Shown here: piece by piece, positions 36,141 to 53,304 of the stretch
How the letters are laid out: each line of letters opens with the position of its first letter
How positions within the stretch are numbered: the stretch's first letter is position 1
Assembly: GCA_964510585.1 (NCBI GenBank)
Contig: CAZECW010000193.1
Span: 1,248 to 65,247, forward strand
Direction: 5' to 3'
Source of the DNA: an uncultured archaeon
Lineage (GTDB): Archaea; Asgardarchaeota; Jordiarchaeia; Jordiarchaeales; Jordiarchaeaceae
DNA: 64,000 nucleotides
Position numbers and translations under genes: made by a program
The notes under the pieces: generated by a model
What the model was told of the DNA's origin: nothing
The model's database searches: none
Seen by the model: the letters and a program-made list of their open reading frames with translations, nothing else

Positions 36141-36816
36141 AAAATATCTAAAAAATGTTGCTTTGACGAAAATGCATCATCCAAGCTCACATGACAAAAA
36201 AGGGGACACTATTCACAAGGCGGAAACTATAAAGTTACCAATGTGCATTATAGAGCCCAGAAATTTGAATTATTATAAATCCATTGAAATTGTTTTAATA
36301 TCATCAGCTTAAAGACAAAATTCATAACCTAACGTACTCCACGGTTAAAGTGGTTGGAGAAGTACCATTTTTCGTCGAAAAAGTAAAATGTTTCAAGAAT
36401 GGAAACATCAAAAAGTAGAAACGAAAACAAATTTTTCGCAAGCCAATATGGTGATTAAGAATTAATTGAGTTCATCCCTTATTTTGTGTTCTAAACTGTG
36501 AGAAAACGCATAAGCCATATGTCATAACATTGACTCCTAACTTTTTATTTTACTATTGATTTTGCTAACTGCTTGTTTCCACCCCTACTCAACCGTGGTT
36601 TTCACGGAGTAGCGCTAAAACTTGTTAATTTAGGCTAAGCAAGTGGAATGTGGGGCTTTTCTAGCCTCCTCCACAAGGCTTCCATGCACCAACAGTTTTT
36701 ATTGAATATACGGGTGTGTGCCTTTTTGAAATCAAGGCGAACTTCTCTACTTCACCAGACAAAATTATCCAAATACTTAAATAATTTAATAGCGCTAAAT
36801 TATAAAAACCATCTGA

Positions 36817-37935
36817 ATGCAGTGTATGAATGTATGGGAGGTAAGATTTTTGGTCGAGGAATGGAGACTAATTTACAATCCAGAAGGAGATATGGCGGAC
36901 ACCGTAGCTTATCCCGCCGCATTAATAACTGGAAAAATGGTGGGAGCACCAAACACCATATTCATAGGAGGATTCAAAAAACTCGGAATCAGCCTAGGAT
37001 ACTTCCAAGACATAGACAGTGAAGTCGACGTAGCCAAGGCACAAGACCTAGACGTGGAAATTGTGCGCAGGCTAGGAGTAGGAGGAGGAACAATACTAAT
37101 AGACCCAAAAGGATCAATGGCAATGCTAATGACCTTCAACGCAGACCGATACCCCAACATGGACAAAGCATTCTGCCAAATCGGCGGTGCACTAGCGCAA
37201 GCCTACTGGAGACTAGGAGTAAAACGAGCATATTATGACCATATCGGAGATATCAAGGTGGGTTTTGAGAAGATTACTGGTTTTGGATTTGCAACTATCG
37301 GTAACATAACTGTTCAGAACACTATTTTCAGTTTGGGGCCCCCAGACGTTGAAACATTTTTGAAGGTTGCCAAGATTCCTCCGGAGAAGTGGAAGGACAA
37401 GAAGATTAGTGATGTGAAAAAATATATCGCCAGTGTTGAAACAGAAACCGGGAGGTTGCCCTCCAAGGAGGAGTTCAGGGATGCTGTGGTAGAAGCCTTC
37501 GAGGATATGTTGGAGGTTAAGTTTGTTGAAGGAGAACTGTTGCCGGAGGAGAAGAAGGCCTACGATGGGAATAGGGCCGTGGCGCTGTCTGACGAGCACA
37601 ACTTTAGGGTTTCGAGTGCTAGGAGATTCGCGAAAATTCCCGAGGATTGCAAGTTAAATATGGCGAGGTACAAGTCGCGGAAACTTATAGTGGCTCATGT
37701 TTTGAGCGATAAGAATGATGTGATAAAGGACGTTATGATTTCAGGAGACTTCTACTGTTCTCCGCTGCCCTATCTGGGAGAGATGGAAAAGTCTCTCGTG
37801 GGATTGAAGGCTACGGATAAGAATGCTCTAGTTAACAAGATTAAGGAGACCTATGCTAAGCCGAATTGGCAGATTCCCATGGTTGACGCAGAAGATATCG
37901 CATCCGCTATATACATGACTACTGGAAAAATTTGA
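36817..37935 (+). CDS. lplA: Lipoate-protein ligase A family protein, paralogue 1
   Basis: …EEWRLIYNPEGDMADTVAYPAALITGKMVGAPNTIFIGG…VEIVRRLGVGGGTILID… corresponds to the LplA RRxxGGGAVYHD region. Alignable with the second paralogue at 50723. ORF 36648..37022 overlaps its N-terminus and is rejected. Confidence 0.7.
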   Translation: MQCMNVWEVRFLVEEWRLIYNPEGDMADTVAYPAALITGKMVGAPNTIFIGGFKKLGISLGYFQDIDSEVDVAKAQDLDVEIVRRLGVGGGTILIDPKGSMAMLMTFNADRYPNMDKAFCQIGGALAQAYWRLGVKRAYYDHIGDIKVGFEKITGFGFATIGNITVQNTIFSLGPPDVETFLKVAKIPPEKWKDKKISDVKKYIASVETETGRLPSKEEFRDAVVEAFEDMLEVKFVEGELLPEEKKAYDGNRAVALSDEHNFRVSSARRFAKIPEDCKLNMARYKSRKLIVAHVLSDKNDVIKDVMISGDFYCSPLPYLGEMEKSLVGLKATDKNALVNKIKETYAKPNWQIPMVDAEDIASAIYMTTGKI

Positions 37936-42692: not shown

Positions 42693-43291
42693 TTATTTTT
42701 TCAGGAGTTCTTTCCTCCTTTCTTCTAGTTTCAGGAGTTCTTTCCTCCTTTCTTCTAGAAGTTGAAGGATTTTGTCTCTGTCTTTGGGAAATGTTTTGTA
42801 AGGTATGAACCATATTAGAAAGCAGATTGTCCATGGAATTACTGTTGTCCAAAGCATAGCTGTTGTCAGTGATTGTCCAGAAAGCGTGAATAATACAAGC
42901 AGGAAAGGTAGCGGGAGGATACCAAGCCAGTAACCCATGTAAGGCGTTATGGTCTGCATTGTTAAGCCGGCTATTCCCCCGTTGAGAGTATCTGCAAGCC
43001 ATCCTACAAACACAGCTGCGACAGCTGCAAATCCCCCCTCAAACATTTGTTCTATGGAGAAGGCGGTGCTTCTTATTTCTGGTTTGGTTACCATAGCAAC
43101 CAAGGGTTGAACTGCGGCAGGGCCAGACCAACTACTCAGAATCGCTGCGATGAAGGCCAAAATTGTGTATTCTGTTATTGACAGGGGCAAAACTAGAATC
43201 AAGAATATTAAAGGAATACCGGAGAAAACAGAAATCTGAGTTACAAAACCTTGGTGAGAAAGCCCCCGACTTCAAGTCGTGGGGATGAATC
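42693..43291 (-). pseudogene. C-terminal (last ~4-5 TM) fragment of an MFS transporter gene, 5'-truncated at the boundary of the GC-rich segment
   Basis: Open frame reads …SRGLSHQGFVTQISVFSGIPLIFLILVLPLS…GWLADTLNGG (motif-A-like loop 8-9)…TPYMGYWLGILPLP… It has no N-terminal half and no ATG. The frame opens exactly where the base composition changes (~43265-43291). It carries a 30-bp tandem duplication at its 3' end. Confidence 0.5.
42703..42765. repeat. Perfect 30-bp tandem direct repeat (2 copies)
   Basis: The + strand reads tttcaggagttctttcctcctttcttctag x2. On the minus strand it encodes the duplicated peptide LEERRKELLK at the C-terminus of the MFS fragment. Confidence 0.9.
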
Positions 43292-44990
43292 GCCAGAAAG
43301 TTTATTTGAAAGTAGGGTATATAAATAGTTGTTGGTAGCTGAAGGGTTTGGCTTGGGCTTAAGAGGCTAAACAAGATGCAGCCCCCATGAGGGTGCCAAC
43401 ATAGACGCCGTTCCCCTGAGGGAAGGGCGTGTTAACTGGGTGATGGCACACCCATTGCTTCGAAGGCTCCCGATGAGCCAGAAGCAAGAATCTCCCGACT
43501 TTAGTCACGGAGAGTGTCAATTTTTGCATCGCCTGAAATAGTTATATGTCGGAGGCCTGTACCCTACCACTACGCTTTCAGGCTACTCAATGTACAGAGT
43601 TTTACCCTCTACAGCTTTGGGAACACTCCCTATGCTCTTGATTTCGGCGCCCATTCCACTAGTGGACGAAATCTGCACCAACGTCAAAAGCGTAGTTCTT
43701 CGAGCGGCGATTAGTGAAGAGCAGAAGGGTACAGCACAAACAGCCACTTGCCGGAGAGGAAGAGACCTCGGTCAGCGACGAGGACCGAGGCTCATTGTGG
43801 AACCGCGTGATCAGGGAAACAAGAAGTCAGCACCTCAGAGGGCACTATCTCCTCGCCGACAAAATCGCCACAATCCTGGGACTCCATAGAGGCCTTTAAA
43901 AAGAGGAGTAGAAACACTGCTATAAAACCCCTTGAGAAGCTTGCTGCGATGCTCATTGTGAAGGAGACGGCGAACCTGAGCTTCGAGAAGCTTCACATGG
44001 AGGCGAGAGCCACAAAGCTACGATGCCCAAAACAGACCAGGCGGAGGAAAAGGATTACAAAGGCCACGGAGTCTCCTGCCAGTACCAACAGAACTGGGCA
44101 AAGACCAAAATCCCAGAGGAGTGCCTCCAAAAGACCCTTATGCTTCTAGATCAGATGGTTGCCCAGATGTACGCGGAGCGCTCTTAGGAGATGAAAATCT
44201 TGAAGAATACAGCATGTCCTCAAAAATGGTACACCTGCATCCTCCTTAGAGAAGTCCGGGTTGCCATGAGGATTATTCTTCGACACCAAATAGTCAGATA
44301 CAATATTTTGACTAGGCTAGCAACGAACACTGTAGGGACTATAGACGCCCCACTGCTGAAGAATACGAGGGGTGCAAGAACCCTTCTGGAACAGGTACCA
44401 CCAGGCTCAACCGTCTATATGGACTGTGAGTAAGGTGTCGAGTACAAATATCTGCATTCTCACAGGGGAGAGTACTCCTCATTTTGTGTCTTAAAGCAGT
44501 ACCGGGAATGCCCTATAAGGGATACTCCGTTGCCAAGCTCAGAAGAACTTTGACTGGGAGAGATACCGCCGCTGTGAGCTTGCTTGGGAGACCCATGGGA
44601 GATAGGTGTGGCGAGGGACGGTGGCACGCTGAAGTACCGGAGGCTAGACAAGGTATGAAGTTGTCTTACTCTCAGGTACATAGCTCACAATGTTAATGTG
44701 TGGTTCACGCAACGAGCAATACTCTTCAGCAGATACAAACTTGGTAGGTGTACAGGACAGTACGTATAGGAGCCCAGAGCAGTTGTCACTGTCTGACCGC
44801 TCGGCTCAGTCGTCACGACAGCATAGCATCCGAATGGGAAGTGAATGAGGGGAAACAGAAACACTGTATGGGCTCAAGCAAAACTAATAAGCGTATAAGT
44901 ACATCAATCTTTTTACATGTTTTCACGGAAGAAAAAAAGACAAAAATATCTTCCTCTTTGGGAAAAGGTAGGCAGAAAAGCTAGATCTAC
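43265..44990. other. ~1.7 kb compositionally distinct (about 50% GC), ORF-poor segment. Candidate structured RNA or degraded foreign/mobile insertion
   Basis: Only short overlapping ORFs (<100 aa) in several frames, with low-complexity R/G/P translations. Multiple GC-rich hairpins, e.g. gagaCCTCGGTCagcgacgagGACCGAGGctc at ~43768-43799. It abuts the truncated MFS gene on one side and the nuoI 3' end on the other. Confidence 0.4.
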
Positions 44991-45092
44991 TTCCTGAGCT
45001 GGACAACAAAATACTGCAACTAACTCCAAAAAACCAAAAAGGAAACAAACAACCAACAAACAAAAAATAAATTAAAAATTAGGGAAGGAGAC

Positions 45093-51817: not shown

Positions 51818-52093
51818 ACATCTCCTGCCAAAACGTCTAAAACCTATCCTACAAATACGGTCGCCCTTTCTCTATTATGCCAAACTAGATTAGGATTTCT
51901 GTTTCCAAGATAAAAACTGGCAAAAGCTACCTTCCCTTAAAAAAAGGCGAGAGGAAGGAAGCAATAGGAGCAATGAAGCCAAACCAAAGCTAAGCGCTCC
52001 CACGTTTTTCCAAAATTGTTTTTTGCTTTTCAATATTTTTTTAAGTTTTGATGACACTTGCTTAACTAGCGTAGTTTAATTACGCTAAAATAA

Positions 52094-53164
52094 TGGAGGT
52101 GTAAAGGCCTGGAAGACTATAGGTTAACGAAGGCAGTAACTCTTTATGGATGATCCTGTAAATTGCCTCAAACCAAGCTTCTGAATCTCTTGGAAAAAGT
52201 GGGCGTTAAAAAGGATCCCTCAGGCAGAGTTGTAGGAGGAATCGGAGAAGACGCAGCGGTCATAAAAATTCAAAAAGATTTGGTGCTCATAGAAACTGTG
52301 GACTTCATAACCCCCAACGTTGACGACCCCTACATTCAAGGCAAAATAGCTGCTGTAAACGTTACCAATGATGTGTACAATGTAAATCATAATGATTTAC
52401 ATGCATAAGCCATAGGTGGAACCGACGTGGTGAGCTTTCTTGCAATACTGGGAATTCCTGAGAACATGCCCCTCAAGATGGCTGAGGAGATGTTACGGGG
52501 GATAAACGACTTGATAAGTGAGTTGGGCACCACAACCATTACTGGGGGACACACCATAATAAACCCTTGGCCCCTAGTGGGAGGCGTAGCCTCAGGAATA
52601 GCCCACCCAGACCAGATAGTAACTCACAAAGATGCGCAGCCCGGCGACATACTCATACTCACCAAACCCTTAGGCACACAACCCGCAATGGCTGTCTACA
52701 GAGGATTACGAGACCCCGCCGTGGCAGAACAAATCCTGAAGTTGGTTTCTCGAAAGGAAGCAGAAGAAATGGTTGAAAAAGGAATTAAATTGATGACCAC
52801 CTCAAATAAACCCGTGGCTGAGGTCATGAGGGTGGTTAAACCCCACGCTTCCACCGATGTCACAGGCTTCGGCTTACTCGGCCACACCCAGGGAATAGCG
52901 GAAAGCAGCAAAGTAGACATCACCATTCATACCCTACCCATCATTAAAGGCACCTTACAAATTTCGGATCTCTTTGGCTACGGCCTGCAATCTGGAGAAT
53001 CAGCAGAGACCGCTGGCGGCATGATTCTCTTTGTCCCAAGTGATTTAAAGGAAAATTTGGAACACGAACTTGACAGGAGATCTGTAACCCATTACGAGAT
53101 AGGAAAAACTAGTAAAGGGTCAGGAAAAGTAGACTTCAGCAAGGCAGAAATACTTGAAGTTTAA
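52094..53164 (+). CDS. selD: Selenophosphate synthetase (selenide, water dikinase), with in-frame TGA (Sec) at 52151-52153. No canonical start codon. Interrupted at 52381-52410 by a 30-bp palindromic insertion containing TAA, so possibly a pseudogene
   Basis: Frame after the TAA at 52091: WRCKGLEDYRLTKAVTLYG-[TGA]-SCKLPQTKLLNLLEKVG… matches the E. coli SelD N-terminus [25 protein letters not shown], with TGA at the Cys17 (Sec) position. Continues …DAAVIKI…LVLIETVDFITPNVDDPYIQGKIAAVNVTNDVY | NVNHNDLHA* | AIGGTDVVSFLAILG…GGHTII…PGDILILTKPLGT… (AIR-synthase-related fold). There is no ATG/GTG/TTG between the TAA and the TGA. The only candidate start is CTG at 52109, 7 nt after GGAGGTG. Confidence 0.7.
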
Positions 53165-53174
53165 AGCGGCAGTA

Positions 53175-53214
53175 ATGACCTGCAGACAAAACCCTTCATG
53201 GAGGTCTGCGGGGA
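53175..53214 (+). promoter_or_regulatory. Candidate SECIS-like RNA element (AUGA - 9-bp helix - AAAA apical loop - helix - GA), 11 nt after the selD stop
   Basis: ATGA(53175-78) CCTGCAGAC(53179-87) AAAAcccttcatggag GTCTGCGGG(53204-12) GA(53213-14). Nine consecutive pairs including one G-U. This is the eukaryote-type kink-turn quartet geometry (AUGA … GA), with unpaired A's immediately after the helix. Confidence 0.35.
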
Positions 53215-53304
53215 ACATTCCGCCTAGCAAGGTTGGTGCCGCCCCTACAAACTAATTAGTTTCCACACTGGTAGAAGCTTGAAGGAGCATTCCCCCTTCG
53301 TGGG

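Follow-up and report, generated by a model that had tools for sequence, protein, structure and literature searches.

The 64-kb stretch of DNA examined here, referred to below as the window, belongs to contig CAZECW010000193.1 of an Asgard archaeon of the Jordarchaeia/Freyarchaeia. It carries selD, the gene for selenophosphate synthetase, in a form that is interrupted by a 30-nt hairpin ending in an in-frame stop codon. As judged from the sequence, selD is best explained as an intact and expressed selenoprotein gene of this lineage. The insert is very probably a conserved pre-mRNA intron with a relaxed bulge-helix-bulge (BHB) motif of the HBh' class, which would be cut by the splicing endonuclease EndA and its exons joined by the ligase RtcB. 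An earlier reading of the same DNA, here called the original prediction, had recognised the interrupted frame and considered a recent pseudogenisation, an assembly artefact, or recoding and bypass.

The selD Reading Frame

Translated over positions 52091-53164, the frame reads stop-WRCKGLEDYRLTKAVTLYG-stop-SCKLPQ...NDVYNVNHNDLHA-stop-AIGGTDVV...ILEV-stop, and programs that call open reading frames (ORFs) recover only two ORFs from it, of 81 and 245 amino acids. The 30 nt, aatgtaaatcataatgatttacatgcataa, lie between ...NDVY and AIGGTDVV..., with the in-frame TAA at their end, and include the palindrome ATGTAAATCAT-A-ATGATTTACAT. The gene is made up as follows.

52109-53164, + strand: selD, with the 30-nt hairpin insert 52379-52408 inside
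52109-52378, + strand: exon 1, 90 codons including the selenocysteine (Sec) codon
52379-52408, + strand: 30-nt insert, very probably a BHB-type (HBh') intron
52409-53164, + strand: exon 2, 251 codons and a TAA stop

When the 30 nt are deleted, the alignment with SelD is restored, as the original prediction had maintained. The protein translated from the joined exons scores 364 bits against the SelD profile NF010705 (cutoff 291), with residues 2 to 337 of 341 aligned, and 252 bits against TIGR00476 (cutoff 125), and its best PDB matches are SPS1/SelD. In the alignment with human SPS1 a 10-residue gap falls exactly opposite the ten codons NVNHNDLHA-stop of the selD frame.

Distribution of the Insert among Related Archaea

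A scan of one genome per GTDB species yielded five selD loci, all within the Asgard Jordarchaeia/'Freyarchaeota' clade and one of them on the complete chromosome CP147778. The match extends in each case over 1053 nt, equivalent to 341 codons plus 30 nt, and alignment showed that the insert, the TGA, the CTG and GGAGGTGT are common to all five. Nine further contigs and three JGI contigs bring the orthologous loci to 17 (L001-L017). The original prediction had proposed a comparison with selD orthologues, and this revealed the same interrupted architecture throughout, the window and every one of the 17 loci having the 30-nt insert at one and the same site. In the complete Freyarchaeia chromosome it occupies the following position.

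CP147778.1, 2458220-2458249: insert (predicted intron) in selD

The protein databases show the same picture from another side. All 28 distinct N-terminal fragment proteins found in public data end in [N/S]VNxxDLH[A/T]-stop, and the 11 closest clusters in the protein database (75-93% identity) are all C-terminal fragments of 232-250 amino acids, whereas the next matches, at about 50% identity, are uninterrupted SelDs of 339 amino acids. Outgroup SelDs carry the motif NDIYA[ML]G continuously and without the insert. When orthologues with introns of other lengths (12-42 nt) were sought, only 30-nt introns were recovered together with one chance match, L018. Synteny is maintained around selD, with a lipoate-protein ligase gene upstream and genes for an Mrp-type antiporter downstream, and the scan of one genome per GTDB species detected no second selD in these genomes.

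Since each of the peculiarities of selD is retained in all of the orthologous loci that were examined, they lie far beyond what chance would produce. An assembly artefact is excluded by the insert at the same site in all loci, by the 28 fragment proteins and by the conserved synteny; moreover, assemblies made independently of one another, from NCBI, JGI, ENA and Logan, contain the same insert.

The hairpin motif TGTAAATC-N(3-9)-GATTTACA was found once in the window, where shuffled sequences lead one to expect none, and the hairpin likewise occurs once per locus. A repeated or mobile element was considered as the source of the insert and rejected on account of this single occurrence in the window and in each locus.

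In the public records for L001-L017 the gene is split into an 'AIR synthase related protein' or 'hypothetical protein' (59-81 amino acids) and a 'selenide, water dikinase SelD' (232-250 amino acids), and the Sec-containing N-terminus is left uncalled.

Selection on the Exons and on the Insert

Ratios of nonsynonymous to synonymous substitution (dN/dS) were estimated by the Nei-Gojobori method between selD of the window and 12 orthologues, and ranged from 0.02 to 0.09 for exon 1 and from 0.05 to 0.10 for exon 2. The proportion of synonymous differences reaches 0.65-0.75, which amounts to saturation. Both exons are therefore under strong purifying selection and selD is not a pseudogene. Thus, of the explanations in the original prediction, a recent pseudogenisation is contradicted by these low ratios, by the saturated synonymous sites and by the presence of the insert in all 17 loci and in all 28 N-terminal fragment clusters; nor do the loci show the lineage-specific disruptions, or the dN/dS near 1, of a decaying gene. 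Seen in one sequence only, the interrupted ORF, the lack of a start codon and the TGA in frame could well be taken for a pseudogene or for an assembly or sequencing error. With the architecture identical in 17 independent loci, which come from different samples and were built with different assemblers, and with the selenocysteine insertion sequence (SECIS), the Shine-Dalgarno sequence and the CTG all conserved, we regard the probability of either as negligible.

The insert evolves quite differently from the exons. Among 15 distinct loci, 75 of the 78 four-fold degenerate sites (96%) vary, as against 9 of the 30 insert columns. The nine variable columns comprise the five loop bases, the mutually paired positions 2 and 24, position 25 (a change from U.G to U-A) and the last bulge base. 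The two 'codons' of the loop change freely, encoding HN, QY, HP, HS, QP, PS, LT, PP, LS, LL or LP, and the adjacent 'codons' are invariant even at their third positions. This contrast implies that the constraint on the insert is structural and not coding, and it argues against an insert that is translated as ten residues by read-through or recoding of its UAA/UAG. The length of the insert, a multiple of three, would allow such read-through, and Jordarchaeia have been reported to recode stop codons for Sec and pyrrolysine (PMC9723677). However, the stop of every locus except one is UAA, no known recoding target in these lineages, and the added residues would split the conserved motif NDxYAxG; we therefore rate read-through as extremely improbable.

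The first six codons of exon 2, AIG[G/A/V]TD, lie immediately past the stop of the insert with no start codon before them, and they change almost exclusively at third positions. They must accordingly be translated as a continuation of exon 1, and this continuous translation weighs against a SelD composed of two polypeptides. In such an arrangement an N-terminal peptide of about 100 amino acids carrying Sec (CUG...UAA) would be accompanied by a C-terminal protein starting at GTG 52424 or 52427, with the hairpin lying between two cistrons. This would agree with gene callers and public annotation, which show two genes named 'AIR synthase related protein' and 'SelD', and every locus does have GTG as one of two neighbouring Val codons. 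The synonymous variation of the six codons between UAA and GTG, in a motif that is continuous in all SelDs, indicates, however, that they are translated. Moreover, the GTG is not preceded by a conserved Shine-Dalgarno sequence, some loci having AGGTGG there and others AGGCGC, and helix H, the bulge and the exact multiple-of-three geometry described below would be left unexplained. A split SelD is, in our estimate, very improbable.

Structure of the Insert and Predicted Splice Sites

Minimum free energy (MFE) folds of the window sequence and of six of seven orthologues show the order (U)GUGU, a 3-nt bulge A-Y-A, a hairpin of 9-10 bp, GCAU(A) and an unpaired AAG. The 13 pairs of the model, four in the central helix H and nine in helix h', are all formed in each of 13 distinct sequences. 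The elements are as follows.

52373-52376, + strand: 5' strand of helix H, GUGU, exonic, paired with 52403-52406 in 100% of the 13 distinct sequences
52377-52379, + strand: 5' splice-site bulge B1, A-C/U-A, between H and h', the second base being C or U; cut predicted after 52378
52380-52402, + strand: intron helix h', 9 bp, AUGUAAAUC/GAUUUACAU, with all pairs in all sequences
52389-52393, + strand: hypervariable 5-nt loop, different in nearly every locus
52403-52406, + strand: 3' strand of helix H, GCAU, intronic; G to A in L006 turns U.G into U-A
52407-52409, + strand: 3' splice-site bulge B2, AAG (AGG in L010), unpaired in the folds; cut predicted after 52408

The pair that closes h' is A-U in five of the 13 sequences, G.U in seven and G-C in one (L006), with a second G-C in L016, and the Val codon GTG within the 5' strand of helix H is invariant.

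The archaeal splicing motif is a 4-bp helix with a 3-nt bulge on either side (PMC7714728); the bulges are cleaved between their second and third residues (PMC2738675), and the relaxed HBh' class is counted within the BHB family and is cut by enzymes of the (alpha-beta)2 and epsilon2 types (PMC5829648). In selD the 4-bp central helix lies between the end of exon 1 and the 3' end of the insert, and the 3-nt bulge at the 5' splice site lies between H and h'. Exon 1 ends with GTGT, the 5' strand of H, followed by AC, the first two bases of B1. In tRNA introns at position 37/38, helix H is formed by nt 32-35, followed by a bulge of nt 36, 37 and i1, and the 3' bulge ends at nt 38. The insert has the same arrangement, with the strand order H-bulge-h' on the 5' side and h'-H-bulge on the 3' side.

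Cuts between the second and third bulge residues make exon 1 end at 52378 (...GUG UAC) and exon 2 start at 52409 (GCC AUA...), such that exactly 30 nt and the UAA are removed, the frame is kept, and NDVY is joined to AIGG as in the outgroups. The excision of exactly 30 nt has not been fitted; it is dictated by where the conserved 4-bp helix lies.

The in-frame stop consists of U52406, the last base of H, together with A52407 and A52408, and it is kept in every locus, as TAA or, in L010, as TAG (456-458). Consequently, unspliced mRNA would always give a truncated peptide of about 100 amino acids and never a full-length protein with ten additional residues.

Searches of Rfam at both gathering and E-value thresholds gave no match to the intron, to the leader hairpin or to the SECIS, and ARAGORN detected no tRNA gene in the window. 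A scan of the whole window for BHB motifs that could join ORFs singled out the selD intron alone, with an h' of 10 bp. Other matches were rejected, as they fell on the wrong strand, within intact ORFs or between two distinct neighbouring genes, and no other convincing mRNA intron was found in the 64 kb.

The third explanation in the original prediction, recoding or bypass, was sound in that the element must be skipped. For a programmed bypass, the ribosome would reach the Tyr codon (UAY), hop the 30-nt hairpin and resume at GCN, in the manner of phage T4 gene 60 or the byp elements of yeast mitochondria. The gap is indeed short and in frame, with a stable hairpin and a stop codon inside, and the exons clearly form one protein. 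Bypass of the T4 gene 60 type, however, relies on matched codons and a stop directly past the take-off site; in selD the take-off codon UAC/UAU and the UAA/UAG before the resume site are unmatched, and take-off is followed by AAU/AGU. Furthermore, the take-off codon lies in a bulge and not within the hairpin, the conserved helix H and the exact BHB ruler would have no role, and translational bypass is not known in archaea. It ranks with a split SelD as very improbable.

Several observations weigh against a BHB intron or limit its definition. A strict hBHBh' motif, in which an outer helix h closes the second bulge, is not present, as the flanking exon bases form no conserved helix; helix h occurs in the subgroup of the window and is absent from the L003 and L008 types. 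The selD motif must therefore be regarded as relaxed HBh' rather than canonical. In most MFE folds helix H is extended by a fifth pair, U-A, the use of which by the enzyme would move the 3' cut by 1 nt. This pair is impossible in L008, L012 and L013, where the base is C, and the conserved helix consequently has 4 bp. There are few true compensatory double changes in the intron, its stems being almost invariant, and a shuffle control of the number of pairs is uninformative for the same reason. The stem sequence is also conserved more strongly than pairing alone demands, which hints at an additional constraint. Lastly, neither a spliced nor an intron-less junction was matched in JGI metagenome and metatranscriptome contigs (0 matches), and a search of 5.8 billion predicted proteins yielded none that spans the junction, only N-terminal fragments being matched; as these collections are mostly genomic, both nulls say little about splicing.

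The 18 bases of the intron stem within 52380-52402 are almost invariant throughout the clade, only the closing pair varying, although 96% of the four-fold degenerate sites have changed, and the stem hardly varies even though G.U pairs would be tolerated as single-step intermediates. This suggests a sequence-specific constraint on the stem beyond base pairing.

Such a constraint could favour another role for the BHB-like structure, namely that it recruits EndA or another RNase for decay of the mRNA by cleavage only, or that it binds a sequence-specific factor. There is a parallel in Haloferax, where EndA processes a BHB in the 5' untranslated region (UTR) of an mRNA and expression is affected (PMC7714728). 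Without rejoining, however, no functional SelD would be made, while conservation extends over the two exons as a single joined frame, and the scan of one genome per GTDB species gave no second selD. We consider this role improbable, if somewhat less so than bypass; a regulatory function as such is compatible with splicing and not an alternative to it.

Proposed Splicing by EndA and RtcB

A pathway can be proposed for the BHB intron on this basis. In the pre-mRNA the exonic GUGU and the intronic GCAU would form the 4-bp helix H, flanked on its 5' strand by the bulge A-Y-A and the 9-bp helix h', and on its 3' strand by the unpaired AAG. A heterotetrameric (alpha-beta)2 EndA would cut past the second bulge base of each strand, after 52378 and after 52408, and RtcB would join the exons, with loss of the in-frame UAA and formation of ...NDVY-AIGG.... 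The predicted spliced junction is GTGTAY followed by GCNATAGG, which in CP147778.1 (2458219/2458250) is GTGTAT followed by GCAATAGG, and the predicted junction-spanning peptide is ...IAAVNVTNDVYAIG[G/A]TDVVSFLAILGIPENMPLK. Translation of the spliced mRNA would then start at CUG 52109, aided by a strong Shine-Dalgarno sequence, and UGA 52151 would be decoded as selenocysteine with assistance from the SECIS in the 3'UTR.

We infer the participation of these enzymes, and the excision and ligation themselves, from the motif and from what is known of the host lineage. Asgard archaea possess an (alpha-beta)2 EndA with an L1 loop and a broad specificity for relaxed motifs (PMC5829648), and in Freyarchaeia and Atabeyarchaeia 92-95% of the tRNA genes carry introns, often several and at non-canonical positions (PMC11291895). 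The machinery is therefore plausible in this lineage, the EndA and RtcB genes lying outside the window. The selD element fits the picture of relaxed motifs, of an intron-rich lineage and of the cbf5 introns (see below) in every testable respect.

A more far-reaching proposal is that the intron acts as a regulatory gate. SelD would then be made by way of three non-standard steps, EndA/RtcB splicing, CUG initiation and UGA-Sec decoding, in a lineage that has begun to employ tRNA-type splicing on its mRNAs, and the conservation of the stem would reflect a trans-acting factor or a function of the excised 30-nt RNA. UGA-Sec decoding itself requires the product of SelD, and the excised RNA may be circular. 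We consider this elaboration doubtful. If true, it would represent an archaeal counterpart of the unconventional splicing of HAC1/XBP1, in the lineage with the most intron-rich tRNAs known.

The Selenocysteine Codon and the SECIS Element

The sequence identifies selD as the selenoprotein form of selenophosphate synthetase, in which a UGA codon at the catalytic position is accompanied by a SECIS.

52151-52153, + strand: TGA, the selenocysteine codon, in the frame ...AVTLYG-TGA-SCKLPQ..., invariant in all 13 loci that reach it
53166-53242, + strand: predicted eukaryote-like SECIS in the 3'UTR, conserved in 13 loci, with five pairs showing compensatory changes

The segment G-U-SCKLPQ aligns with G-C-SCKLPQ of the Cys-type SelDs and also with the Thr/Sec position of human SPS1. 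The invariance of the TGA and the SECIS-like element downstream uphold its assignment to selenocysteine in the original prediction. The SECIS comprises an outer helix GCGGCA/UGCCGC, AUGA at 53175-53178, a 9-bp helix (53179-53187/53204-53212), an AAAA apical loop and GA at 53213-53214. Elements resembling the eukaryotic SECIS (eSECIS) have been reported for Asgard selD (PMC11227280), and the SECIS described here is consistent with them. In that article the words 'intron' and 'start codon' occur 0 times, and neither the selD intron nor the selD start codon is mentioned in the papers on Asgard SECIS elements or on Jordarchaeia and Freyarchaeia genomes.

An extra covarying hairpin (53221-53236, CCGCCUAGCAAGGUUGG) separates the GA core from the 3' strand of the outer helix, an arrangement not recognised by the SECIS models of Rfam.

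The Leader and the Likely Start Codon

Upstream of the selenocysteine codon the following elements were identified.

52036-52045, + strand: TATA-like box TTTTTTTAAG, putative archaeal promoter of selD as judged from position only; a T-run followed by AA[GA] occurs in 12 of 12 aligned loci
52067-52087, + strand: leader hairpin TAGCGTA-gtttaat-TACGCTA, 7-bp stem; core AGCG(U)/(A)CGCU conserved in 12 loci, with a loop of 3-14 nt
52095-52101, + strand: Shine-Dalgarno sequence GGAGGTG; GGAGGTGT is invariant in 13 of 13 loci
52109-52111, + strand: CTG, likely non-canonical start codon, situated 7-8 nt past the Shine-Dalgarno sequence and 13 codons ahead of the TGA, and invariant in 13 of 13 loci

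About 22 nt separate the leader hairpin from the TATA-like box upstream of it, and the selD mRNA therefore probably has this hairpin at its 5' end or close to it. A hairpin with a 7-bp stem had been noted in the original prediction at 52063-52083; the hairpin exists, and its coordinates require a shift of 4 nt.

The original prediction was also correct in that no ATG, GTG or TTG lies between the TAA at 52091 and the TGA, and that CTG 52109 sits 7 nt past GGAGGTG. The absence extends to the clade, as no start codon of these three kinds is conserved among the 13 loci with upstream sequence, where the only canonical start triplets are GTGs in two loci, produced by synonymous variation of a Val codon. 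The Shine-Dalgarno sequence is complementary to the 3' end of 16S rRNA, and the same motif precedes other ORFs of the window at a spacing of 6-12 nt. An indel of 1 nt between this sequence and the CTG in L002 demonstrates that the frame is not kept upstream of the CTG, and in five loci there is an in-frame TAA two codons upstream of it. The Cys-type homologues start with M[DT]YRLTK, one or two residues from the CTG position, and position 4 of the NCBIfam SelD profile aligns at residue 2 of selD. The invariance of the CTG and of the Shine-Dalgarno sequence, the lack of a conserved canonical start, the broken upstream frame and the nearby N-termini of the homologues make CUG the best candidate initiator, and CUG 52109 is, from these sequence comparisons, the likely start codon of selD. 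For prokaryotes, starting translation at either GUG or UUG is held to be normal and starting at CUG is not, whereas CUG is the commonest non-AUG start codon in eukaryotes (PMC4705826). A conserved CUG start would thus be unusual for an archaeon.

Two other sources of a start codon were examined and rejected. To see whether an additional BHB intron at the 5' end could provide an ATG, all possible in-frame joins from ATG 52051 were enumerated; none has a BHB geometry, and the upstream ATG is not conserved in the other loci. For a +1 frameshift or sequencing error following ATG 52093 (ATG-GAG-GTG-TAA), the first base of the triplet proved to be A, T, C or G in the different loci.

The consensus structure predicted for the 5' leader and the start region is weak (-8 kcal/mol), shows no convincing covariation and does not explain the use of CUG. 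The sequence GGTTAAC at 52122-52128, within the codons for R-L-T, is invariant in the 13 loci, including the six-fold degenerate Leu codon TTA, despite synonymous saturation. L003, L009, L010, L012 and L013 carry a second GTTAAC between the Shine-Dalgarno sequence and the CTG; the two copies could pair with the CUG in the loop, a structure for which the consensus fold provides no convincing support.

Comparison with Known Systems

Among the closest known systems are the BHB introns in cbf5 pre-mRNAs of the Crenarchaeota (Watanabe 2002; Yoshinari 2006; Yokobori 2009, PMC2738675). These are 16-44 bp in length, have frequently relaxed motifs, are in some cases multiples of three and interrupt a catalytic motif. 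The selD insert resembles them in being a short non-coding intron (30 nt) in a coding sequence, with a BHB-like structure cut between the second and third bulge residues, and in disrupting a catalytic-site motif. In both cases the lineages possess (alpha-beta)2 endonucleases and the genes have been mis-annotated as split or frameshifted. It differs in residing in another gene, encoding a selenoprotein, and in another phylum (Asgard, Jordarchaeia/Freyarchaeia), and in having a fixed length, a nearly invariant sequence throughout the clade and an in-frame stop at its end. Furthermore, splicing of cbf5 was proven by cDNA and in vitro cleavage, whereas that of selD is deduced from structure and conservation.

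The tRNA introns of Freyarchaeia and Atabeyarchaeia (PMC11291895) share with the selD intron the architecture h-H-B-h'/h'-H-B-h, presumed processing by EndA and RtcB, and a size range (11-175 nt) that includes 30 nt. The host RNA of the selD intron is, in contrast, an mRNA with no tRNA body and no outer helix h, and for lack of the latter an enzyme of broad specificity would be needed. Haloferax volcanii HVO_1309 (PMC7714728) carries a BHB intron in its 5'UTR, which is likewise an mRNA substrate of the tRNA splicing endonuclease and whose removal matters for expression. This intron lies, however, in an untranslated leader rather than a coding sequence; its motif is canonical, and its host, a euryarchaeon, has a homodimeric enzyme.

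In T4 gene 60 the coding sequence is likewise broken by a short in-frame gap with a hairpin and a stop, although the matched take-off and landing codons of that gene, and its stop right after take-off, are absent from selD. In the cytoplasmic splicing of HAC1/XBP1 in eukaryotes a short intron (26 nt in XBP1) is removed from the coding sequence at stem-loops without the spliceosome and the exons are joined by an RtcB-type or tRNA ligase, and this splicing switches the protein output. It differs from the proposed selD splicing in its endonuclease, IRE1, in its recognition motif and in its control by endoplasmic reticulum stress. Finally, the Asgard Sec-containing SelDs with an eSECIS-like 3'UTR (Mariotti 2016; Huang 2024, PMC11227280) have in common with the gene described here a UGA at the catalytic position and a kink-turn-like SECIS, AUGA...GA; the intron and the non-canonical start codon are additional features of the latter.

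Implications

Since 2002, BHB introns in protein-coding genes have been documented for cbf5 alone, which is the only case cited in papers from 2020 and 2025, and one case of a BHB intron in a 5'UTR is also on record. In the literature searched, no paper connects BHB introns with protein-coding genes of Asgard archaea. selD is thus most likely the second archaeal protein-coding gene family with a BHB intron, the first in Asgard archaea and the first in a selenoprotein gene. If true, tRNA-type splicing of mRNA is no crenarchaeal oddity, since it would extend to another gene and to the Asgard archaea, the closest relatives of eukaryotes, in a clade where intron-containing tRNA genes make up 92-95% of the total.

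In every public genome of the clade selD is annotated as two unrelated ORFs, and it is not among the selenoproteins detected in Jordarchaeia by Sun et al. 2021. It follows from the split annotation and from this absence that gene finders, selenoproteome surveys and metabolic reconstructions mis-score the Sec pathway here. Metatranscriptomes were collected in the wetland-soil study behind the complete Freyarchaeia genome (PMC11291895).

Other Features of the Window

A region of about 1.9 kb (43200-45090) contains no ORF of at least 100 amino acids on either strand, in a window that is otherwise gene-dense. Its GC content is 0.48-0.53, compared with 0.37-0.46 nearby, and it carries no tRNA and no significant Rfam match (only a weak one to mir-49, E 0.056); for the part at 44100-45090 the fold z-score is -2.2. 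The region may represent a structured RNA not yet described, or a gene that has been heavily disrupted. On the + strand, two ORFs of 124 and 372 amino acids (36648-37022 and 36817-37935) overlap by about 200 nt in different frames.

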